A stretch of 36,696 nt of DNA. Origin: an uncultured Anaerolineaceae bacterium. Lineage in GTDB: Bacteria; Chloroflexota; Anaerolineae; JAAYZQ01. The notes under the pieces were generated by a model, which was given only the letters and a program-made list of their open reading frames with translations, did not search any database and was not told the DNA's origin. Below are positions 5,605 through 13,896 of the stretch, in pieces. Where the stretch lies: positions 1 through 36,696 of the forward strand of contig CAZQKE010000132.1 of assembly GCA_964593865.1 (NCBI GenBank), written 5' to 3'. Numbering within the stretch: position 1 is the stretch's first letter; each line of letters opens with the position of its first letter. A program made the translations under genes and the position numbers.

Positions 5605-8061
5605 TCAGTCAACCGGCTCCGACCTCCGACGCCGGATCAATGCGGCCAGGGCCAACGGCAGGGCCGCCGCGCCGCCGCAGAGTCCACCCTTTGACGGCTC
5701 TGCCGGGGGCGTGGGAGCCGCCGGTTCGCCGGTCGGCGCGGCCGGCCGGGTTGGGGCAGGGGCTTCCGGTTGGCCCGGCGGTTCCCCCAGGCGAAAGGCC
5801 CCGCCCCCCTCGGAGGCCATGTAGAGCACCCGGCCATCGGTGGAAAGGGCCAGGTCGCGCACGTTGCGGGTGAGCAGGCCGTCGTTCAGCTCCTGCCAGG
5901 TCGCCCCTCCGTCGGTGGAAAAGTAGATGCCGCTCTCCGCAGCCCCGGCATAGAGCACCTGGGGGTCGGTGGGGTCCACGACGATGGCCTTGACCGAGAC
6001 CTCCGGCGGCATCCCCGACGAAGCAGGCCGCCAGGTCCGCCCGCCGTCGTCGCTGATGGCCGCGCCGCCCCGCACGAAACCGATGTAGAGCCGCTCCCGG
6101 TTCGTCGGGTCCACGGCCAGGGCCAGGGGGGCCGTGCGCGGCATATCCGGGTCGGGGGGCGGCGGCATTCCCTGGGTGGCGTCGTCGTTGACCATCTCCC
6201 ACGTTTCCCCGCCGTCGTCGGAGCGGTAGACGCGGGCGGGGGCCACCGTGGCATAGACGCGCCGACCGTCGGCGGCAAAGGCCAGGTTCAGCACCTGTTG
6301 CCCGTCCAGGCCGGAGGGCGTCCAGGTCTGGCCGCCGTCGCGGGAAAGGATGATGCCGCCGCCCGGTTCCTCGCAGCCTTCGCCTTTGGTCTGGCAAGCG
6401 CCGTTCCCCACACCGGCCAGGACCAGGCCCCGTTCGGTGGGGGAGAAGCGGAAGCGGGTGGCCATGCCCTGCAGTCCCTTGTCCATCAGCTCATGGCCCA
6501 CGTCGCGCCAGGTGTGGCCGCCGTCGGTGCTCAGCTTGGGCAGCGGTCCCGCGTCGCCCACGCTGGCCAGGATATGTTGTGCGTCCCACGGGTCCACGGC
6601 GATGGCCAACCCTTCCAGGGCGCGGGCCGGGCCGTAGCTCAACCCCTCCCAGGTTTGGCCGCCGTCGCTGCTGGCAAAGAGGCCGCTGCGGGCGGTGGCA
6701 TAGACGCGGGCCGGATCGTCCCGCGCCACGGCGATCTGGAACATCAACGCGCCGGAATAGCCCCGGCTGGCCACCTGCCAGGTGCGGCCCCCATCCTCGC
6801 TGAGAAAGTTGCCGCCGCCGTAGGCGTTGACGAACACCCGATCGGCGTTGCGGGGATCGCATTGCAGGTCAATGGGGAACCCGGCCACCACCCCCGGCGG
6901 CCCCCACATCTCCTCCCCCACCTGGACAACCTGGCCTTCGCCGACGCCGGCCTGCAACCGCCAGGTTTGGCCCGCGTCGTCGCTGCGGTAGAAGCTATAC
7001 AAAGAGGCGGCGTAGGCCACATTCGGGTCCCCCTCGCAGATTTCAACCGCGCTGCCGTTGGGCAGATCAAGCACCCGCTGCCAGGTATCGCCGCCGTCCT
7101 CGGTGCGGTAGACGGCGCCGAGGGGATGGCCCAGGACGTACATGTAGGGATCGTTGCCCGCGGCGGCCAGGAGAATGTTCGGGTTGGTGGGGTGCATGTA
7201 GAGGCTGCCGAAGTAGAGCTCATCGGGGCGGAAGCCGTTTTCCACCCCCAGCACCTCCCAGGTCTGGCCGCCGTCATGGCTGCGGAGGATGCCCACGCCG
7301 CCCGGATCGGGGGCCTCGGGATCGCCGTTGGCCGCCACCCGGTCAAAAATGCCGGTGGAGACGTAGAGCAGGTTGTGATCCTGGGGGTGAATCCAGATGT
7401 AGCGGGCCAGATTGTCGCCGTACCAGATGCGCTCCCAGTGTTGGCCGCCGTCGGTCGTCTTGTAGACGATGCCCTTGACCGTGTCCACCCCCTGAAGGCT
7501 GGGCAAGGGTGAGCCGTTCCACTCCCAGCTGGATACCTCCCCGGCCAGGTAGACCACGTCCGAGTTGCCCGGTTCGACGGTCAGGCCCCGGATGGTAGGG
7601 CCGCGTTCCCGGATGCCGTTGTCCATCCGCACCCAGGTCGCGCCGCCGTCGTCGCTGCGATAGACGCTGCGCGAATACTGGGTTCCGATCCACACCCGGT
7701 CGGGGTTGTTGGGGTCAATGGTTAGGCTAAAGACGGGGATGCCGTCGCCGGAAGGGCCGATGCGGGTGATGATGCCGGAGTTGCTGAGGAACCAGCTCTG
7801 CCCGCCGTCGGTGGATTTGAACACCCCGGCCCAGGCGTCGGTGACGAACATCACATCGGGGTTGTCGGGCCGCATACGGACATCATAGCCCAGCCCGCCC
7901 AGCGGCCCGCCCAGGTACACCCAGGGGGAGGATTGATAGGCCGGAGGTGGTTCGCCTGCTTCCCGCAGGCCGCTACCTTGCGCTCCTACGCCCCCCAAGG
8001 ACAACAAGACCGATGCCAACGTGACGATGCCGACCAGTGAGATGATTCTTTTACCGTCCAT
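5605..8061 (-). CDS. Secreted BNR/Asp-box repeat protein with about 13 SxDxGxTW motifs, consistent with two beta-propellers of the GH74/sortilin-like type. It ends in a GlyGly-CTERM-like tail.
   Basis: The ATG at 8059-8061 (rc) has an AGGAGC RBS. The signal peptide is MDGKRIISLVGIVTLASVLLSL. Repeated Asp-boxes include STDGGQSW, SDDGGATW, TTDGGQHW and SHDGGQTW. The C-terminus is KGGLCGGAAALPLALAALIRRRRSEPVD. The track ORF runs 85 codons further upstream into the repeat array and is not believed. Confidence 0.8.
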   Translation of the reverse strand: MDGKRIISLVGIVTLASVLLSLGGVGAQGSGLREAGEPPPAYQSSPWVYLGGPLGGLGYDVRMRPDNPDVMFVTDAWAGVFKSTDGGQSWFLSNSGIITRIGPSGDGIPVFSLTIDPNNPDRVWIGTQYSRSVYRSDDGGATWVRMDNGIRERGPTIRGLTVEPGNSDVVYLAGEVSSWEWNGSPLPSLQGVDTVKGIVYKTTDGGQHWERIWYGDNLARYIWIHPQDHNLLYVSTGIFDRVAANGDPEAPDPGGVGILRSHDGGQTWEVLGVENGFRPDELYFGSLYMHPTNPNILLAAAGNDPYMYVLGHPLGAVYRTEDGGDTWQRVLDLPNGSAVEICEGDPNVAYAASLYSFYRSDDAGQTWRLQAGVGEGQVVQVGEEMWGPPGVVAGFPIDLQCDPRNADRVFVNAYGGGNFLSEDGGRTWQVASRGYSGALMFQIAVARDDPARVYATARSGLFASSDGGQTWEGLSYGPARALEGLAIAVDPWDAQHILASVGDAGPLPKLSTDGGHTWRDVGHELMDKGLQGMATRFRFSPTERGLVLAGVGNGACQTKGEGCEEPGGGIILSRDGGQTWTPSGLDGQQVLNLAFAADGRRVYATVAPARVYRSDDGGETWEMVNDDATQGMPPPPDPDMPRTAPLALAVDPTNRERLYIGFVRGGAAISDDGGRTWRPASSGMPPEVSVKAIVVDPTDPQVLYAGAAESGIYFSTDGGATWQELNDGLLTRNVRDLALSTDGRVLYMASEGGGAFRLGEPPGQPEAPAPTRPAAPTGEPAAPTPPAEPSKGGLCGGAAALPLALAALIRRRRSEPVD

Positions 8062-8100
8062 ATTTGCTCCTAACATTCCCGGTCCCACCGCCGGGCCGTG

Positions 8101-8749
8101 CAGCGGGATTTTCATCCCCGCTGGTGAACCGAGAATACGCGGTTGAGACCGCCCCTGGCGGGCCGTTGGCCGACCGCCCGCCTGTGCGTGCGCGCCTGCC
8201 ATGCAGGCGGAAGCGTCCGCGTAGGCGGACGCCCGGCCGCAGGCCCGAAAGGAGCGACTTGAGTCGCCACTCGCACCCTCCCGCAGGCTGGGCGGCGGAT
8301 GCCCACAGCAGCGCATGGCAACGGCAAGCGGGACCTGTCCGGGCCACGGCTTACAAGCCTGCGGGAGGGTTCCCGCGCGGGATTTTCATCCCCGCTGGTG
8401 AGCCGAGAATACGCGGTTGAAACCGCCCCTGGCGGGCCGTTGGCCGACCGCCCGCCTGTGCGTGCGCGCCTGCCATGCAGGCGGAAGCGTCCGCGTAGGC
8501 GGACGCCCGGCCGCAGGCCCAAAAGGAGCGACTTGAGTCGCCACTCGCACCCTCCCGCAGGCCGGGCGGCGGATGCCCACAGCGGCGCATGGCAACGGCA
8601 AGCGGGACCTGTCCGGGCCACGGCTCACAAGCCTGCGGGAGGGTTCCCGCGCGGGATTTTCATCCCCGGTGGTGGGCCGAGAATACGCGGTTGAAACCGC
8701 CCCTGGTGGGCCGTTGGCCGACCGCCCGCACAGGCGGGCGGTCGGCCCA
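8101..8749. repeat. Tandem array of a ~277-nt structured element, about 2.3 copies: a 3' fragment, then two full units, then a diverged partial.
   Basis: The unit runs from GGTTGAAACCGCCCCTGGCGGG to GGGATTTTCATCCCCGCTGGTGAGCCGAGAATACGC. The two full units start at 8139 and 8416 and differ at about 6 positions, roughly 98 % identity. Internal hairpins include GCGTCCGC-GTAG-GCGGACGC, GCGACT-TGA-GTCGC, GCCTGC-CATG-CAGGC, and the 13-bp inverted repeat CCCTCCCGCAGGC-N55-GCCTGCGGGAGGG. Confidence 0.85.
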
Positions 8750-8775
8750 GGAGTCACGGCTTTCGCTGTCGCGCC

Positions 8776-8830
8776 GGTAGCGCAAGTTTCCAACTTGCGA
8801 GACCGCAAGCCGGAGGCTTGCGCAACGGCG
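8776..8830 (-). terminator. Tandem hairpins downstream of the small secreted-protein gene; a possible terminator, although no U-tract follows.
   Basis: The stems are CGCAAGTT-TCC-AACTTGCG (8 bp) and GCAAGCC-GGA-GGCTTGC (7 bp). They lie immediately 3' of the stop at 8874 in minus-strand sense. No uridine run follows either stem. Confidence 0.25.
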
Positions 8831-8873
8831 CAGGAAAACGCCCGCCCCCGGTCCAGGAGTCGCCGCCTCCGGG

Positions 8874-9158
8874 CTAGTGACTGCGCAGCACCAGGGGCAA
8901 ATAGACCCGCCACATCGGAGTCACGCCGCTGCCGCACCAAAAACCGCCGCACAGGCTGTGCCCGCTGCTAACGGTCTCGCCGGTCAACGGTTGACCGATG
9001 CTCCCCATCAGCAGGTGGTTCGCGTCGGCCGCCGAGCCACCGCCCCCGGCCACCACATGCCAGGAAAGGTCATAGTTGGCCGAAACTTGGGCCAGCACCG
9101 GCGCGACCACCGCCAGGAGCAGGCAGAGGGACAGGGCCGGAATGAGTTTGTCCTTCAT
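8874..9158 (-). CDS. Small secreted Gly/Cys-rich protein (94 aa) with the conserved C-terminal motif YLPLVLRSH; the B1 member of the duplicated cassette.
   Basis: The ATG at 9158 is preceded by GAGGAGGG. It lies 12 nt downstream of the upstream gene's stop. The signal peptide is MKDKLIPALSLCLLLAVVAPVLA. A CGGFWCG motif is present. The protein is paralogous to the one at 12431..12709. Confidence 0.6.
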   Translation of the reverse strand: MKDKLIPALSLCLLLAVVAPVLAQVSANYDLSWHVVAGGGGSAADANHLLMGSIGQPLTGETVSSGHSLCGGFWCGSGVTPMWRVYLPLVLRSH

Positions 9159-9170
9159 GTCATCCCTCCT

Positions 9171-11177
9171 CTACCGCTTGCTGACGGTGTTATCGTTGTT
9201 GTTGCTGATCCACATGTTGGCCCCGTCGAAGGCGATGTACAAGGGCCGGTCACCGACGGATACGGTGGCGACCGGTCCAAAGTCTGCGACGCGGACGATG
9301 CTCACCGTATCGTCATACTCGTTCACCACCCACATATTGGCTCCGTCAAAAGCCAGGGCCGTCGGCCCACTGCCGATGACGGGCGGCTGGAGCGTTTTGA
9401 CCAGTGCGCCGTCGCTGGCCCGGAAGACGCTGACCGTACCGCCGTCCAGGTTGGCAACCCACATGTTGGCGCCGTCAAAGGCGATGGCCGTCGGCCCGAC
9501 ACCGGCGGTGAGCGTCATCACGTGTGTCCCGTCGTTGGCGCGGATGACGCTGACCGTGCCGACCGAGTAATTCGTGATCCACATGTTGACCCCGTCAAAG
9601 GCGATGCCGCGCGGCCCTACGTCAAGGGTGGGCGTCATCACATGTGTCCCGTCGCTGGCGCGGATGACGCTTACATTTTTGCTGCCGTTGTTTACCACCC
9701 ACATATTGGCTCCGTCGAAGGCGAGGCGGAAGGGGATCGTGCCGACGGTGGGTGTCATCACATGGCTGCAATCGCTGGCCCGCAACACGCTGACAGTATT
9801 GTTGTCCCTGTTTGTGACCCACATGTTAACTCCGTCGAAGGCGATGGTATCGGGGTTGAGGCCGACGGTGCAGGTCATCACCCGCTCGCCGGTGCTGGCC
9901 CGCAGCACGGTGACGGAATCGGGGCCATAGTTTGCCACCCATATATTGGCTCCATCAAAGGCAATGCCGCTTGGCTGCTGGCCGGTGGGGAAACTCAGGT
10001 CGGTGGCGATGGCCGGATACCACTTGAGCAGGGCGATCTGTTGCAGATTCGGCCCCTGGATGAGGGAGGGACCGAGCGTTGCCAGGGCAAACCCATCCCC
10101 ACTGGAAGCTCCCAAGCCGACGCCGTGGGTGCTGGTGAAGTAGCCTCCCACACCGTTCCCCCGGTTTTCACCGATGACGGCGGCGTAGCTCTCCCGAGAG
10201 TTGGCGTGGACCCCTGCGCCGTGGGTGCTGGTAAAGTAACCGGCCGTGCTGCTGATGCTCATGCCGTGGACGCCGACGTCGTTGGTGCTGAAACCCAGGA
10301 CGCCAAAGCCATCTGCGCTTTCGCCCAGCACTCCAACGACCGGGCCGTGCCCCTTGACACCGATCTCGCTACCGCTGCTCCCGATGATGCCGATGTCTTG
10401 GGTGCTTGTAAAGAAACCGGCCACACCTTTGCTCAAGCCGTAAACGCCGTAGCCTGTATCGCTGGCTCCTTGCAGGCCCGGTCCTGCTGCATAGTTCTCG
10501 CCCCAGATGGCCGCCGAGGTATCGGAACCGGTGCCGCCGTAGACCGCCGAGGAGGTGTTGCTGCCGAATTCACCGCCGAACCCGTCCTGGCTCGTCGCCA
10601 GGATGCCGGCTCCGCCCGTGCTCCAGGCGTGGACCGCTGCCCGGTCGCCGTTGGCGTACAGACCGACGGCACCGCTGCCTTTGTTGATGGCATACAGTAC
10701 GGCGGTGTTCTCGTTGCCGGCAAGCCCGCCGCTGATGACCGCTCCCGGCCGCAGCGAGAGAGCGTAGGGAACGGGGAACAGCGGCTGGCGGGGTGTCATC
10801 TCTGCCTCTCCCTGGAGCTGCACCCCCAGCCACAACGCCCGCCCGTCAACCAGGCCGGGGTCCACGCCGTCCAGATAGGCGGTGAAAAAGCCTTCCTCTA
10901 CGGATACGCTGATCGCCTGCGACCACACCGCCGCGCCGCCGGGCGAATCGTACAGACGGAAGGTGATCGTCCGGACGCCGTTGACCGGGTCGCCGTTGCT
11001 ATCCAACAAGCGGCCCTGGTAGGAAATGGTCCCGGAAACGACGTTGCCAACCGCCGCCGATGAGGCCGTCGGGCCGGTCACACCCGGCCCGGCCTGAACG
11101 CCGCCGACGATCAGCAACAGGACGGCCAATGCCAGGGCAAATACGATGCCGACAGAGATTGCTTGCTTTTTGTCCAT
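9171..11177 (-). CDS. N-terminally anchored surface protein (668 aa); the A1 member of the duplicated cassette. It carries a shared N-terminal module, a Gly-rich repeat region and a C-terminal beta-propeller of about 8 blades of the YVTN type.
   Basis: The ATG at 11177 is preceded by AAGGAGG. The track ORF extends 72 codons into the repeat element and is not believed. The N-terminal transmembrane anchor is ISVGIVFALALAVLLLIVGGV. The shared module runs from YQGRLLDSNGDPVNG to PRQPL. Repeats of GVxGxS and GYFTS types follow. There are 8 repeats of about 42 aa of the form AFDGANMWVxN..TVSVxRASDG.HVMT. Confidence 0.8.
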   Translation of the reverse strand: MDKKQAISVGIVFALALAVLLLIVGGVQAGPGVTGPTASSAAVGNVVSGTISYQGRLLDSNGDPVNGVRTITFRLYDSPGGAAVWSQAISVSVEEGFFTAYLDGVDPGLVDGRALWLGVQLQGEAEMTPRQPLFPVPYALSLRPGAVISGGLAGNENTAVLYAINKGSGAVGLYANGDRAAVHAWSTGGAGILATSQDGFGGEFGSNTSSAVYGGTGSDTSAAIWGENYAAGPGLQGASDTGYGVYGLSKGVAGFFTSTQDIGIIGSSGSEIGVKGHGPVVGVLGESADGFGVLGFSTNDVGVHGMSISSTAGYFTSTHGAGVHANSRESYAAVIGENRGNGVGGYFTSTHGVGLGASSGDGFALATLGPSLIQGPNLQQIALLKWYPAIATDLSFPTGQQPSGIAFDGANIWVANYGPDSVTVLRASTGERVMTCTVGLNPDTIAFDGVNMWVTNRDNNTVSVLRASDCSHVMTPTVGTIPFRLAFDGANMWVVNNGSKNVSVIRASDGTHVMTPTLDVGPRGIAFDGVNMWITNYSVGTVSVIRANDGTHVMTLTAGVGPTAIAFDGANMWVANLDGGTVSVFRASDGALVKTLQPPVIGSGPTALAFDGANMWVVNEYDDTVSIVRVADFGPVATVSVGDRPLYIAFDGANMWISNNNDNTVSKR
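9190..9990. repeat. Intragenic tandem DNA repeats with a period of about 126 nt, encoding the YVTN blades.
   Basis: Eight recurring copies of CACATGTTGGC(N)CCGTC(A/G)AAGGCGATG are seen, roughly 126 nt apart. They correspond to the AFDGANMWV blade motif read on the minus strand. Confidence 0.7.
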
Positions 11178-11217
11178 TTTCTTCCTCCTTTTCACACTTT
11201 TTGCTTCTTTGAAAACA

Positions 11218-11385
11218 GCGGTTGAAACCGCCCCTGGCGGGCCGTTGGCCGACCGCCCGCCTACGCGGGCGGAAGCGGGAGCGTCCGCGTAGGCGGACGC
11301 CCGGCCACAGGCCCAAAAGGAGCGACTTGAGTCGCCACCGTCTCCGGCGCGAGCAGCCGGGATTTTCATCCCCGGTGGTGAGCCG
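11218..11385. repeat. Shortened modular copy of the ~277-nt structured element.
   Basis: It shares GCGGTTGAAACCGCCCCTGGCGGGCCGTTGGCCGACCGCCCGC, GCGTCCGCGTAGGCGGACGCCCGGCC, CAGGCCCAAAAGGAGCGACTTGAGTCGCCAC and the terminal GGGATTTTCATCCCCGGTGGTGAGCCG with the array at 8101-8749. It lacks the ~125-nt module containing the 13-bp inverted repeat. It fills the spacer between the hydrolase stop at 11390 and the surface-protein start at 11177. Confidence 0.8.
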
Positions 11386-11389
11386 GGGG

Positions 11390-12271
11390 TCACCTGGACT
11401 TTAGAAATTCGATGAGGAGCGGGTTGACCCGGTCCGCCCGCTCATAGTGGGGCACATGCCCCGCTTCCTCGATGGCCCGGAACTCAAGGTTGGGGATCAG
11501 CCGCCGGACCTCCCGGCTGAGGGCAAAGGGGATCACCCTATCCCGGCGGCCCCAGATCAGCAGCACGGGGCGATCCTGCCGCCCCACGCTTTCATACTCG
11601 GCCCGGACGCCGGTCAGCAGCCCGCTCCGCAGGGTGGAAAGCAAAGCCTTTTTGAACCCGCGATAGGGCATCTGGCGACGGTATTTTTCCACATAAGCCG
11701 GATCGGGGAACCGGTCGGTGTCGTAAAAGTCGTCCCGCAGCCCGGCAACGAGCACCCGGTCCCCCAGCAAGCCCATCATCCATTCGCCCAGCCGGGGGAG
11801 CGTGACCAGCCGGGCCATCAGGGAAGGCTTTTGCGGCAGGCCCGCCGGATCGATCAGGACCAGCCGCCGCACCCGGTCGGGGTGGCGGCTGGTAAAGACG
11901 ACGGCAATGGCCCCGCCCATGGATAGGCCGATCAGGTCCACAGGGCCGGATATGTCCAGAGCGGAGAGGAGTCCCAGCAACTGCCGGTCGAACAGGTCGG
12001 CGTCATAGGTCGTGTCGGGCCGGTCGGAATAACCCCGGCCGTAGAGGTCGTAGCGCAGCACACGGAACCCGGCCCGGACCAAGGCGGCAAAGGTGGGGTC
12101 CCAGATGTGGTAGGGGACCGAAAAGCCGTGTACCAGGACCACGACCTGTCCCTCCGGCGGCCCGGCCATCTCATAGTGGACCATCCCTTCCGGCAGGGCG
12201 ACGAATTGACCGGGTGCGGCAGCGCGGGCTGCCGCATCCAGGTCACGCGATTCTCCAAACTTTGCAGGCAT
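11390..12271 (-). CDS. Alpha/beta-fold hydrolase.
   Basis: The ATG at 12271 is preceded by GGGAGGGG. A GxSxG nucleophile elbow is present (GLSMGG). The VLVHGF oxyanion region is present, as are a C-terminal Asp and His (AGHVPHY). The substrate is unknown. Confidence 0.8.
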   Translation of the reverse strand: MPAKFGESRDLDAAARAAAPGQFVALPEGMVHYEMAGPPEGQVVVLVHGFSVPYHIWDPTFAALVRAGFRVLRYDLYGRGYSDRPDTTYDADLFDRQLLGLLSALDISGPVDLIGLSMGGAIAVVFTSRHPDRVRRLVLIDPAGLPQKPSLMARLVTLPRLGEWMMGLLGDRVLVAGLRDDFYDTDRFPDPAYVEKYRRQMPYRGFKKALLSTLRSGLLTGVRAEYESVGRQDRPVLLIWGRRDRVIPFALSREVRRLIPNLEFRAIEEAGHVPHYERADRVNPLLIEFLKSR

Positions 12272-12430: not shown

Positions 12431-12709
12431 CTAATGGTTGCGCAGTATGCAAGGTAGGTAGAGACAGCAGCAGCCGCTGCCCCGCAATGCCGGGGCGGCA
12501 GGGCTGAGCAGATACCCCGGTCCGCCGACGACGCCGCCCACACGCCAGGCCAGGACGGTCAGGTGATAGGTCCCGCCGGAGGTAACTCCCGCCTCGACGG
12601 TGTACGGCGCGGCGGTGGGCCGCCCGCCGGACCGGGCGGAGACGACTCCGGTCAGCAACAGCGTGCAGACCAGGATGGCCGGGATGATCCAGAGCGCATA
12701 TCTTTTCAT
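12431..12709 (-). CDS. Small secreted Gly/Cys-rich protein (92 aa) ending in YLPCILRNH; the B2 member of the duplicated cassette.
   Basis: Its ATG overlaps the upstream gene's stop as ATGA at 12706-12709. The signal peptide is MKRYALWIIPAILVCTLLLTGVVSA. A GSGCCC cluster is present. The C-terminus is paralogous to that of the 8874..9158 product. Confidence 0.6.
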   Translation of the reverse strand: MKRYALWIIPAILVCTLLLTGVVSARSGGRPTAAPYTVEAGVTSGGTYHLTVLAWRVGGVVGGPGYLLSPAAPALRGSGCCCLYLPCILRNH

Positions 12710-13896
12710 CGTTCACCCTCCGGTTTTTCCAGCCGCCGGTCCTCGTAGCCCAGCCGCTTGGCAACGATGCGGTAATCAAAAGAACAGGACGAGGGTTGCC
12801 CGTCGAGGGTCACACCGCGTACGGTAAAGCCGGTGGTTCCCTTGTCGGTGACGAACAGCAGCACCGGCTCCCGGCACAGCGGGGTTACAAAAACGTGATA
12901 CTCGGTTTTCAAGTTGACCGTCTGGGCAAAGATGGGATCAAAGACAACGGTGGCCTCACCGTCCGACAGGGATGCGCTGCCCAGGTCCTCAAACCAAACT
13001 TCGGGACTCTCAACGGCATACAGCAGGCGGCGGCCATGGTCGGCCGTTTTGACCAGGGCCGATTTGCTGCCGGTGCAGTTCAGGTTCCCGCTTTCGTCAA
13101 TGGTGCATACGTCGGTGCCCCCCGAATTTTTGACCCGCAAGGTATGGTCCTCGCCGCCGTCGTTGTCCAGCTTCAGGACAATGTCGGCATTGCTGGAAAG
13201 CCACAGTTGGCTGTCTCCGCTGTCGGCGGCGTTGATCCGGCCGATATCCCCGCCCAGGCCCAGGTCAAGGTGGTCGTTGCTGCTGGAAAAATAGCCGCCG
13301 TAGTCGGTTTCGCTTACGCCGTACACGCCCGGACCGCTCTTGCTGCTGGCCAGGATGCCTTTGGTATCCGCCAAGCCGGAGATGTTAAAGAGGGCCAGGC
13401 CCCAAAAATCTTCCCCCGTCCACGATTCGCCAAAGTGGTCGTGGGGACAGGAAGAGCCGGCGGTGGGAGCGGACGGGGCGGACGGGGCCAGTCGCTGGCG
13501 CGGGTTCAGTAGGGTGAACTCGGTTTCCCCCGGCCCGCGCACCCCCACCTCCAACCAGAGGTTGTCTTCCTCCAGCACCGCCGGGGGGATTCCCTCCTTG
13601 CTTCCAAGAGAAGTGAAGAATGTGCCGTTCTTGACCGCCACCCCCGCCTGTGTCTCCGTCCACAACGGTTGCCCGCCGGTTGCGACATTGTACAGGGCAA
13701 AGGTGAAATCATAGCGCCCGTCGGCCACCGCTTGCCCCGCCTCTTTGCTCAGGCGACCGGGGTAGGGGATGGTCACGCCGGGGGAAGCGGTCTCTTGCTC
13801 CGGCGACAGGGCACGCACCGTGTCGGCCAAACGAGGGATAAGCCCCACGGCCAACACCAAAACACCGACGATCAGCAAAGTTTTCTTCGCAGACAT
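12706..13896 (-). CDS. N-terminally anchored surface protein (396 aa); the A2 member of the duplicated cassette. It has the shared N-terminal module and an unrelated C-terminal beta-rich domain.
   Basis: The ATG at 13896 is preceded by AAAGGAGG. The transmembrane anchor is KKTLLIVGVLVLAVGLI. The shared module (YPGRLSKEAGQAVADGRYDFTFALYN...PLWTETQ...FFTSLG...LWLEV...PRQRL) aligns with residues 40-150 of the 9171..11177 product. The C-terminal domain contains GVYGVSETDYGGYF. Confidence 0.75.
   Translation of the reverse strand: MSAKKTLLIVGVLVLAVGLIPRLADTVRALSPEQETASPGVTIPYPGRLSKEAGQAVADGRYDFTFALYNVATGGQPLWTETQAGVAVKNGTFFTSLGSKEGIPPAVLEEDNLWLEVGVRGPGETEFTLLNPRQRLAPSAPSAPTAGSSCPHDHFGESWTGEDFWGLALFNISGLADTKGILASSKSGPGVYGVSETDYGGYFSSSNDHLDLGLGGDIGRINAADSGDSQLWLSSNADIVLKLDNDGGEDHTLRVKNSGGTDVCTIDESGNLNCTGSKSALVKTADHGRRLLYAVESPEVWFEDLGSASLSDGEATVVFDPIFAQTVNLKTEYHVFVTPLCREPVLLFVTDKGTTGFTVRGVTLDGQPSSCSFDYRIVAKRLGYEDRRLEKPEGER

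Follow-up and report, generated by a model that had tools for sequence, protein, structure and literature searches.

The intergenic element located between an alpha/beta-hydrolase gene and A1, a gene for a beta-propeller protein, in a contig of an uncultured Anaerolineaceae bacterium is very probably one copy of a dispersed, modular and hairpin-forming intergenic repeat family of uncultured Anaerolineae, derived from a miniature non-autonomous transposable element and resembling the BIME or BOX mosaics. No description of this Anaerolineae repeat family was found in the literature searched. It should be added that the elements do not mark the neighbouring A1-B1 cassette as mobile or specially regulated, which removes a tempting inference from their position. 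The analysis started from the whole stretch of 36,696 nucleotides, referred to below as the window, which matches the ENA metagenome contig ERZ27262694 (k141_424747) except for one repeat unit.

Named homologs of A1, of the hydrolase and of a pyruvate kinase were from Anaerolineae or Chloroflexota genome bins. The relevant genes of the window are all located on the minus strand and follow each other, in the order of transcription, as AMP-binding enzyme, A2, B2, hydrolase, A1, B1 and BNR/sortilin-like protein. The repeated block was delimited by cross-locus BLAST to 11203-11391, up to the hydrolase stop codon, and the covariance model R1, built from 14 diverse cores, matched 11218-11338 with 123 bits. 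The features are as follows, from the upstream to the downstream side.

12706-13896, minus strand: A2.
12431-12709, minus strand: B2.
11390-12271, minus strand: alpha/beta hydrolase.
11390-11392, minus strand: hydrolase stop codon TGA, at the element junction.
11203-11391, minus strand: whole repeat unit, between the hydrolase stop codon and the A1 ribosome-binding site, from cross-locus BLAST, model R1 and alignment to copy L089.
11339-11389, minus strand: 5' module, a GGGA-TTTTCA-TCCC hairpin with GGTGGTGAGCCG; lineage-specific.
11319-11338, minus strand: hairpin GGAGCGAC-TTGA-GTCGCCAC, the stem of which covaries between lineages.
11236-11320, minus strand: inverted doublet of two arms of about 33 nt, mutual reverse complements.
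11281-11300, minus strand: hairpin C, on the plus strand GCGTCCGC-GTAG-GCGGACGC.
11253-11272, minus strand: hairpin B, on the plus strand CCGCCCGC-CTAC-GCGGGCGG, with a loop one base off the family norm.
11218-11237, minus strand: module 1, on the plus strand GCGGTTGAAACCGCCCCTGG, a small hairpin GCGGT-TGAA-ACCGC present in several Chloroflexota lineages.
11204-11217, minus strand: degenerate 3'-terminal module TGTTTTCAAAGAAG; family consensus TATTTTCGAGGAAG with Shine-Dalgarno-like GAGGAAG.
11175-11190, minus strand: A1 start codon (11175-11177) and its own Shine-Dalgarno AAGGAGGAAG (11181-11190), outside the repeat.
9171-11177, minus strand: A1, beta-propeller protein with hydrophobic N-terminus.
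8874-9158, minus strand: B1.
8063-8760, minus strand: companion array upstream of the BNR/sortilin-like gene, with 274-nt units at 8103-8376 and 8377-8650 and a partial unit.
5605-8061, minus strand: BNR/sortilin-like protein, start codon 8059-8061.

The interval 11218-11385 and the 274-nt array (8103-8729) have three modules in common. The motif GGGATTTTCATCCCCGGTGGTGAGCCG at 11359-11385 has three more copies in the array with two mismatches at most and 0 expected by chance; the 43-nt module GCGGTTGAAACC...CCGCCCGC at 11218-11260 has three, and GCGTCCGCGTAGGCGGACGC at 11281-11300 and GGAGCGACTTGAGTCGCCAC at 11319-11338 have two each. The initial annotation had held that a 168-nt copy at 11218-11385 keeps the terminal motif and hairpins of the array, and this was confirmed: all the motifs quoted there are present at their positions and recur in the array with 0-2 mismatches, none being expected by chance. 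It had also described the copy as filling the hydrolase-A1 spacer. That is correct as only the Shine-Dalgarno region is left over, whereas the extent has to be corrected to the slightly longer 11203-11391. The outer end of the 5' module is truncated or diverged in comparison with the family consensus GAGGAAGCGGACCGATCC... Both junctions of the copy were confirmed in a separate Logan assembly of another run, in which contigs break inside the element, as expected of a multi-copy repeat. Searches against Rfam returned no family at gathering thresholds and, in permissive mode, chance-level matches only (up to E = 5). Furthermore, the element had no match in phage contigs and plasmids, and promoter and terminator scans of the element gave counts at chance level and nothing convincing.

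In the companion array, Tandem Repeats Finder detected 2.3 copies of the 274-nt unit at 8103-8729. Each unit is composed of a canonical core, a 106-nt palindromic insert (8271-8376 and 8545-8650), which is also found at locus L054, and a longer variant of hairpin B. The gap between B1 and the BNR gene measures 538 nt in the ENA contig (L001, 12304-12846) vs 812 nt in the window, i.e. exactly one 274-nt unit fewer, with array flanks and short copy identical. This one-unit difference is either real copy-number variation or assembler collapse, and the copy number of the array is therefore uncertain. As a side observation, the stretch 8750-8873 (GCAAGCCTCCGGCTTGCGGTCTCGCAAGTTGGAAACTTGCG...), which separates the array from the B1 stop, is similar to the sequence upstream of a copy at L049 (5425-5545) and may be a third repeat module; in Rfam it had a sub-threshold match only (CC1840, 24.7 bits vs a cut-off of 50).

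Exact scanning with the module-1 20-mer GCGGTTGARACCGCCCCTGG revealed 24 loci in representative genome bins, almost all of Chloroflexota (14 from a single Chloroflexi bin and 7 from a single Anaerolineales bin), in addition to 63 loci in metagenomes, of which Ga0256914 contributed about 30; the loci having been chosen by an exact 20-mer, this census is biased. The approximately 30 Ga0256914 copies are near-identical to the window copy over the whole unit and may belong to the same population as the window or to a very close one. No exact match to the 5'-module 23-mer CGGGATTTTCATCCCCGSTGGTG was returned, either from representative genomes or from JGI metagenomes.

The unit is about 185 nt long with a core of 121 nt, which is the commonest core length and architecture among 45 distinct cores; the other cores span 62-141 nt, with central hairpins lost, fused or gained. 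Since the window core has this commonest length and architecture, what had been taken for a shortened copy is in fact the canonical form, of which the 274-nt unit of the array represents an expansion. Within the window, model R1 identified the two known sites only; elsewhere it detected additional ones, among them four units arrayed in L048 with a period of 195 nt. It is common in this family for copies to lie a few kb from each other, such as the pair 2.3 kb apart around one gene in L049 or the three on one 49.5-kb contig. It was also observed that the spacers are shared with a second repeat type, unrelated to the first and interleaved with it (L029 1602-1800, L032 6909-7700, L035 8400-8872 and many other Ga0256914 loci). 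It reads ...GGCCGGGCGTATTCGTGCATTCG...GGACGGCCCGCTTTGGCGGTTCCGGAGATTTGAACCGCAAAGG..., includes a tRNA T-loop-like GGTTCGAATC and can end in TATTTTCGrGGAAG.

The mobility of the family is indicated by the sister lineage CAKZOY01/Ga0209721, where an element of 160 bp is built on the same core, has terminal inverted repeats of 14 bp (GTAACTGTTCAGCC at one end, its imperfect complement at the other) and is flanked by locus-specific 8-bp direct repeats that are perfect or have one mismatch. This 160-bp element is a miniature transposon. Its 8-bp duplications and ends beginning with GTAA give a tentative lead to the IS66 family, which they resemble. The 160-bp element was seen at L004, L005, L009, L011, L016, L019 and L037, with ends that begin GTAACTGTTCAG, and CTGTTCA-type ends similar to those of the sister lineage occur in two other lineages. 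No terminal inverted repeats were detectable in the window lineage or in the window copy. Neither was a locus-specific target duplication seen in the window lineage, where the flanking repeat is always GAGGAAG-like, in three cases with matching rare variants at both ends; the window copy itself has no flanking duplication. Among the fetched loci there was no transposase partner, no insertion sequence bounded by the sister-lineage inverted repeats and no paired ends at insertion-sequence distance.

Filled and empty sites were found between relatives. The hydrolase was used to locate the empty counterpart of the window site, because the next-best A1 homolog is just 55% identical. In two loci from two samples (L092 and L093, hydrolase 86% identical), the hydrolase stop is followed by 17 nt and an ATG, the element being absent, and the open reading frame after the gap has a hydrophobic, signal-peptide-like N-terminus. 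The site between hydrolase and next gene is thus empty in the closest relative found, so the window copy is a lineage-specific insertion. The hydrolase ends with ...EFLKSR and stop here (window 11390-11410) vs ...EFLMGYTK and stop in the 86% ortholog (L092 5480-5508), with the divergence after ...EFL; as the stop codon falls on the junction with the element, the final codons appear to have been reshaped by the insertion. A second such site is that of the pyruvate kinase gene. In the filled allele (L039 6520-6550) the unit reaches right up to the start codon TTG, directly after the GAGGAAGAAA of the element, whereas in the element-free 89% ortholog (L096 200-220) the spacer is 5 nt long and an ATG follows the upstream stop at this distance. 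The two alleles differ up to and including the start codon (filled TGAGGAAGAAATTG vs empty GAATAGTCGCTATG), and the ribosome-binding site of the pyruvate kinase, perhaps together with the start codon, came with or after the insertion. It should also be mentioned that the 86% relative has, upstream of its hydrolase (L092 4500-4530), a diverged module-1-like sequence CGGTTGAAACCGACGCCTGGG in opposite orientation with a weak model score (E about 0.1), which suggests an older, decayed copy of the family.

The orientation of the units relative to genes was surveyed with repeat blocks masked and a simple in-house GC3-based ORF picker at 35 window-lineage sites, both neighbours being called at 27. 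Sixteen sites were sense and two antisense between co-directional genes, seven lay between divergent genes and two between convergent ones. The orientation bias of 16 vs 2 is significant (binomial p = 0.0013), and so is the difference in context from repeat-free gene pairs (107 co-directional, 22 convergent and 17 divergent; chi-square p = 0.0012). At 15 sites the distance from the end of the repeated sequence to the next start codon downstream is within 20 nt. No orientation bias is seen for the sister-lineage transposon (roughly 7 vs 6). Pfam matches were obtained for 9 of 10 tested downstream ORFs, several running from near the predicted N-terminus. The genes downstream of units code for ThyX, a solute-binding protein, pyruvate kinase, a phosphate acyltransferase (phosphotransacetylase-type), a permease, S1-domain, LysM and Lon-domain proteins and a histidine kinase, i.e. 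for mutually unrelated families, and the modules abutting the A1 and BNR starts differ from each other.

Units of the window lineage are preceded by GAGGAAG and end with TATTTTC and GAGGAAG; away from repeats, TATTTTC-GAGGAAG never occurs in about 270 kb. A pure target-site model was considered and found no support, since no stand-alone ATTTTCGAGGAAG, as the empty target, exists outside repeats in the same approximately 270 kb; the motif therefore travels with the repeats. Hiding of the ribosome-binding site as a general mechanism was likewise rejected: at 7 of 9 sites, the real element and its shuffled versions left the -16 to -4 region no different in accessibility. The terminal heptamer of the window copy has degenerated to AAAGAAG, the Shine-Dalgarno of A1 being the gene's own AAGGAGGAAG, located 17 nt beyond it.

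Concerning the structure, two folds are open to the inverted doublet, namely a closing stem that bears two 8-bp hairpins and a single long rod. The initial annotation had proposed that the two neighbouring hairpins pair through an alternative long helix, on the grounds that their loops, CTAC and GTAG, are complementary. The helix stands, as it is the predicted minimum-energy fold of both strands (z = -3.4 and -4.1), but the weight put on the loops does not: CTAC is a one-base peculiarity of this copy, the hairpin B position of all other window-lineage copies being occupied by GCAG or by a longer variant hairpin. That both strands fold equally well is expected of palindromic DNA. Across lineages, 95.7% of the cells of the consensus structure are paired vs 35-58% with partners slid, compensatory changes are found in 12 of 35 pairs, and none of 500 shuffles reached the observed values; these data indicate that hairpin formation in single-stranded DNA or RNA is under constraint. 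This constraint fits a transposition substrate and an RNA role alike, and DNA-level hairpins give the same covariation signal. Stems gather fewer substitutions than loops, and on the gene-sense strand G-U mismatches outnumber A-C ones, with 21 vs 6 counted across lineages and 9 vs 2 among copies of the window lineage; as these counts are not independent, they are suggestive only. Together with the sense bias, the G-U excess and the sparser stem substitutions hint at selection on the sense-strand RNA, so that some copies may be more than passive passengers.

To explain these observations, we propose that a mobile, non-autonomous repeat entered the hydrolase-A1 junction once this lineage had separated from the 86% relative. 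The unit would then be transcribed together with its minus-strand neighbours, giving intercistronic or 5'-untranslated RNA, and insertions would survive mainly where their 3' end leaves or supplies a Shine-Dalgarno (consensus TATTTTC-GAGGAAG) beside a start codon; survival limited to such positions would produce the orientation bias. The hairpins may affect mRNA stability in a generic manner. The presence of elements on both sides of A1-B1 would follow from the family-wide habit and from local clustering of copies, with no role in expressing, duplicating or moving the cassette. A further and more speculative step, which we regard as possible though rather unlikely, is that the element of this lineage carries its own Shine-Dalgarno. 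It might either target and duplicate ribosome-binding sites or survive only with GAGGAAG beside a start codon, and could in this way colonise the 5- to 17-nt junctions of translationally coupled genes, supplying a ribosome-binding site, and possibly a start codon, to dozens of unrelated genes.

Several other explanations were weighed against this one. The initial annotation had argued from the two flanking elements, both 5' of minus-strand genes for secreted proteins, for a function tied to the expression of these genes or for a role in duplication or mobilisation of the cassette. The non-random placement itself is upheld by the sense bias and the proximity to start codons, but it is not specific to secreted-protein genes. 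A cis-regulatory RNA or a recombination/mobilisation site specific to the A1-B1 cassette and the neighbouring secreted BNR protein would agree with the bracketing of the cassette, with the N-termini of both downstream proteins, hydrophobic and signal-peptide-like by eye, and with the stable fold (z = -3.4), the last of these being shared by both strands as in any palindromic DNA. It is nevertheless largely refuted, and we consider it very improbable. Dozens of copies lie beside unrelated housekeeping genes, and units upstream of thyX, pyruvate kinase, permease and other unrelated genes speak against a function tied to the expression of the cassette genes. Being an ordinary copy of a repeat scattered beside unrelated genes, the element says little about the cassette that it flanks. 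Duplication of the cassette is contradicted by the age of the partners: A1 and A2 are 29% identical over about 220 residues of their N-terminal parts, and B1 and B2 share a C-terminal decapeptide only, while 97% identity is found between element copies. The elements are therefore much more recent than the paralogy and did not duplicate the cassette. Model R1 found no element at A2-B2 in the window, and, judging by ORF coordinates, the AMP-binding gene upstream lies only about 25 nt from the start of A2. In a more distant neighbourhood, L090, BNR, A-like (55% identical) and B-like genes are present and elements are absent; a cassette without flanking elements in relatives is what the initial annotation itself had named as weakening its reading. 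The hydrolase junction, finally, is empty in the 86% relative.

A reading that overlaps with the preferred one is that co-option has turned the family into a general RNA-level module, i.e. a mobile intercistronic or 5'-UTR cassette giving a Shine-Dalgarno and protective hairpins to whatever lies downstream, in which case the A1 and BNR copies would aid translation or mRNA stability. We regard it as possible though rather unlikely. The sense orientation (16 vs 2), the 15 sites within 20 nt of a start codon, the restriction of TATTTTC-GAGGAAG to repeats in about 270 kb, the pyruvate kinase alleles (TGAGGAAGAAATTG vs GAATAGTCGCTATG) that differ through the start codon, and the sense-strand G-U excess over A-C are in its favour, but the window copy has a degenerate AAAGAAG with A1 relying on AAGGAGGAAG, folding gives no consistent hiding or exposure of the ribosome-binding site in comparison with shuffled elements, and the sister-lineage transposon lacks an orientation bias (roughly 7 vs 6). 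Considerably less probable is a REP/REPIN-type doublet moved by a RAYT tyrosine transposase via single-stranded DNA hairpins and not descended from an inverted-repeat transposon. In its favour, the two arms of the core each contain a palindrome and form an inverted doublet like that of a REPIN, the motif GTAG occurs, single-strand transposition typically gives strand-specific orientation, and GTAG-tagged repeats have been reported in Chloroflexi (PMC3733652). Here, however, GTAG forms the loop of hairpin C instead of an unpaired tag flanking a stem, and is replaced by GCCG, GCAG or GAAG in other lineages; the family prefers gene 5' ends, while REPs occur mainly 3' of genes and between convergent genes (PMC3733652); and the terminal inverted repeats and 8-bp duplications of the sister lineage are not made by single-strand transposition. 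That the repeat structure is an artefact of short-read metagenome assembly is extremely improbable: the array does differ by exactly one 274-nt unit between two assemblies, but the ENA contig and the Logan contigs of another run agree on the short copy and on its two junctions, and the family recurs in many independent assemblies. CRISPR, integron attC and tRNA-derived origins were dropped on anatomy.

The preferred explanation, a dispersed repeat derived from a miniature transposon, was also compared with the known systems. With MITEs such as the Correia elements of Neisseria and Nezha of cyanobacteria, the family shares small size, non-coding and multi-copy nature, mostly intergenic location, a palindromic body folding tightly, filled and empty sites between relatives (the hydrolase junction in L092/L093 and the pyruvate kinase site in L096) and, in the sister lineage, 14-bp terminal inverted repeats with 8-bp target duplications. 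It differs from them in that window-lineage units are bounded by constant GAGGAAG, without inverted-repeat ends or locus-specific duplication, form head-to-tail arrays and are strongly sense-oriented beside start codons. Interchangeable modules, variable internal hairpins, tandem reiteration (periods of 195 and 274 nt), interleaving with second and third repeat types in the same spacers and probable transcription as 5' or 3' operon extensions bring it close to BIMEs of E. coli and BOX of Streptococcus pneumoniae. There is no sequence relationship to these, and the Anaerolineae family favours positions upstream of genes in sense orientation (16 sense, 2 antisense, 7 divergent, 2 convergent), unlike BOX, RUP and SPRITE, which are enriched between convergent genes (PMC3049150).

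REPs are defined by a conserved unpaired GTAG (or CGTC) tag beside a palindrome of 20-40 nt (PMC3733652). The short GC-rich palindromes, the inverted doublet foldable into a long hairpin and the frequent G-T pairs in stems are REP/REPIN-like, whereas a conserved unpaired GTAG or CGTC tag is lacking and the placement relative to genes is opposite (2 convergent vs 7 divergent sites). Similarly to integron attC sites, the repeats are species-specific imperfect palindromes of about 120 nt, located between genes in one orientation; the Anaerolineae copies are, however, spread over at least 25 contigs beside housekeeping genes and not in one array, and inspection of the sequence showed neither the attC core sites RYYYAAC/GTTRRRY nor an integrase context. 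With riboswitches and leader RNAs the family has in common a covariation-supported structure, but it has no Rfam match and no single downstream gene family, and the modules next to the A1 and BNR starts are not the same.

The placement, in sense and hard against start codons and not downstream of genes, is unusual for a bacterial interspersed repeat. If the element does act as a Shine-Dalgarno donor, it would show how a selfish element can enter tightly packed operons without silencing the downstream gene, and the family would become a tool for studying how translation initiation is signalled in a phylum for which genetics hardly exists. In practical terms, the family breaks short-read assemblies, and the copy number of the array varies between assemblies of the same organism.

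Two minor observations concern the cassette proteins. A small ORF of 92-98 amino acids with a hydrophobic N-terminus follows each A gene (B1, 8874-9158; B2, 12431-12709; L090, 7952-8248). These ORFs have no Pfam match, and B1 and B2 share the C-terminal motif YLP-x-(V/I)LR-(S/N)-H only; an A gene with its small B ORF may form a conserved two-gene unit. Furthermore, the A1 coding region contains at 9180-9986 five to six tandem repeats of 120 nt (40 amino acids), which are unrelated to the intergenic element and are probably beta-propeller blades.
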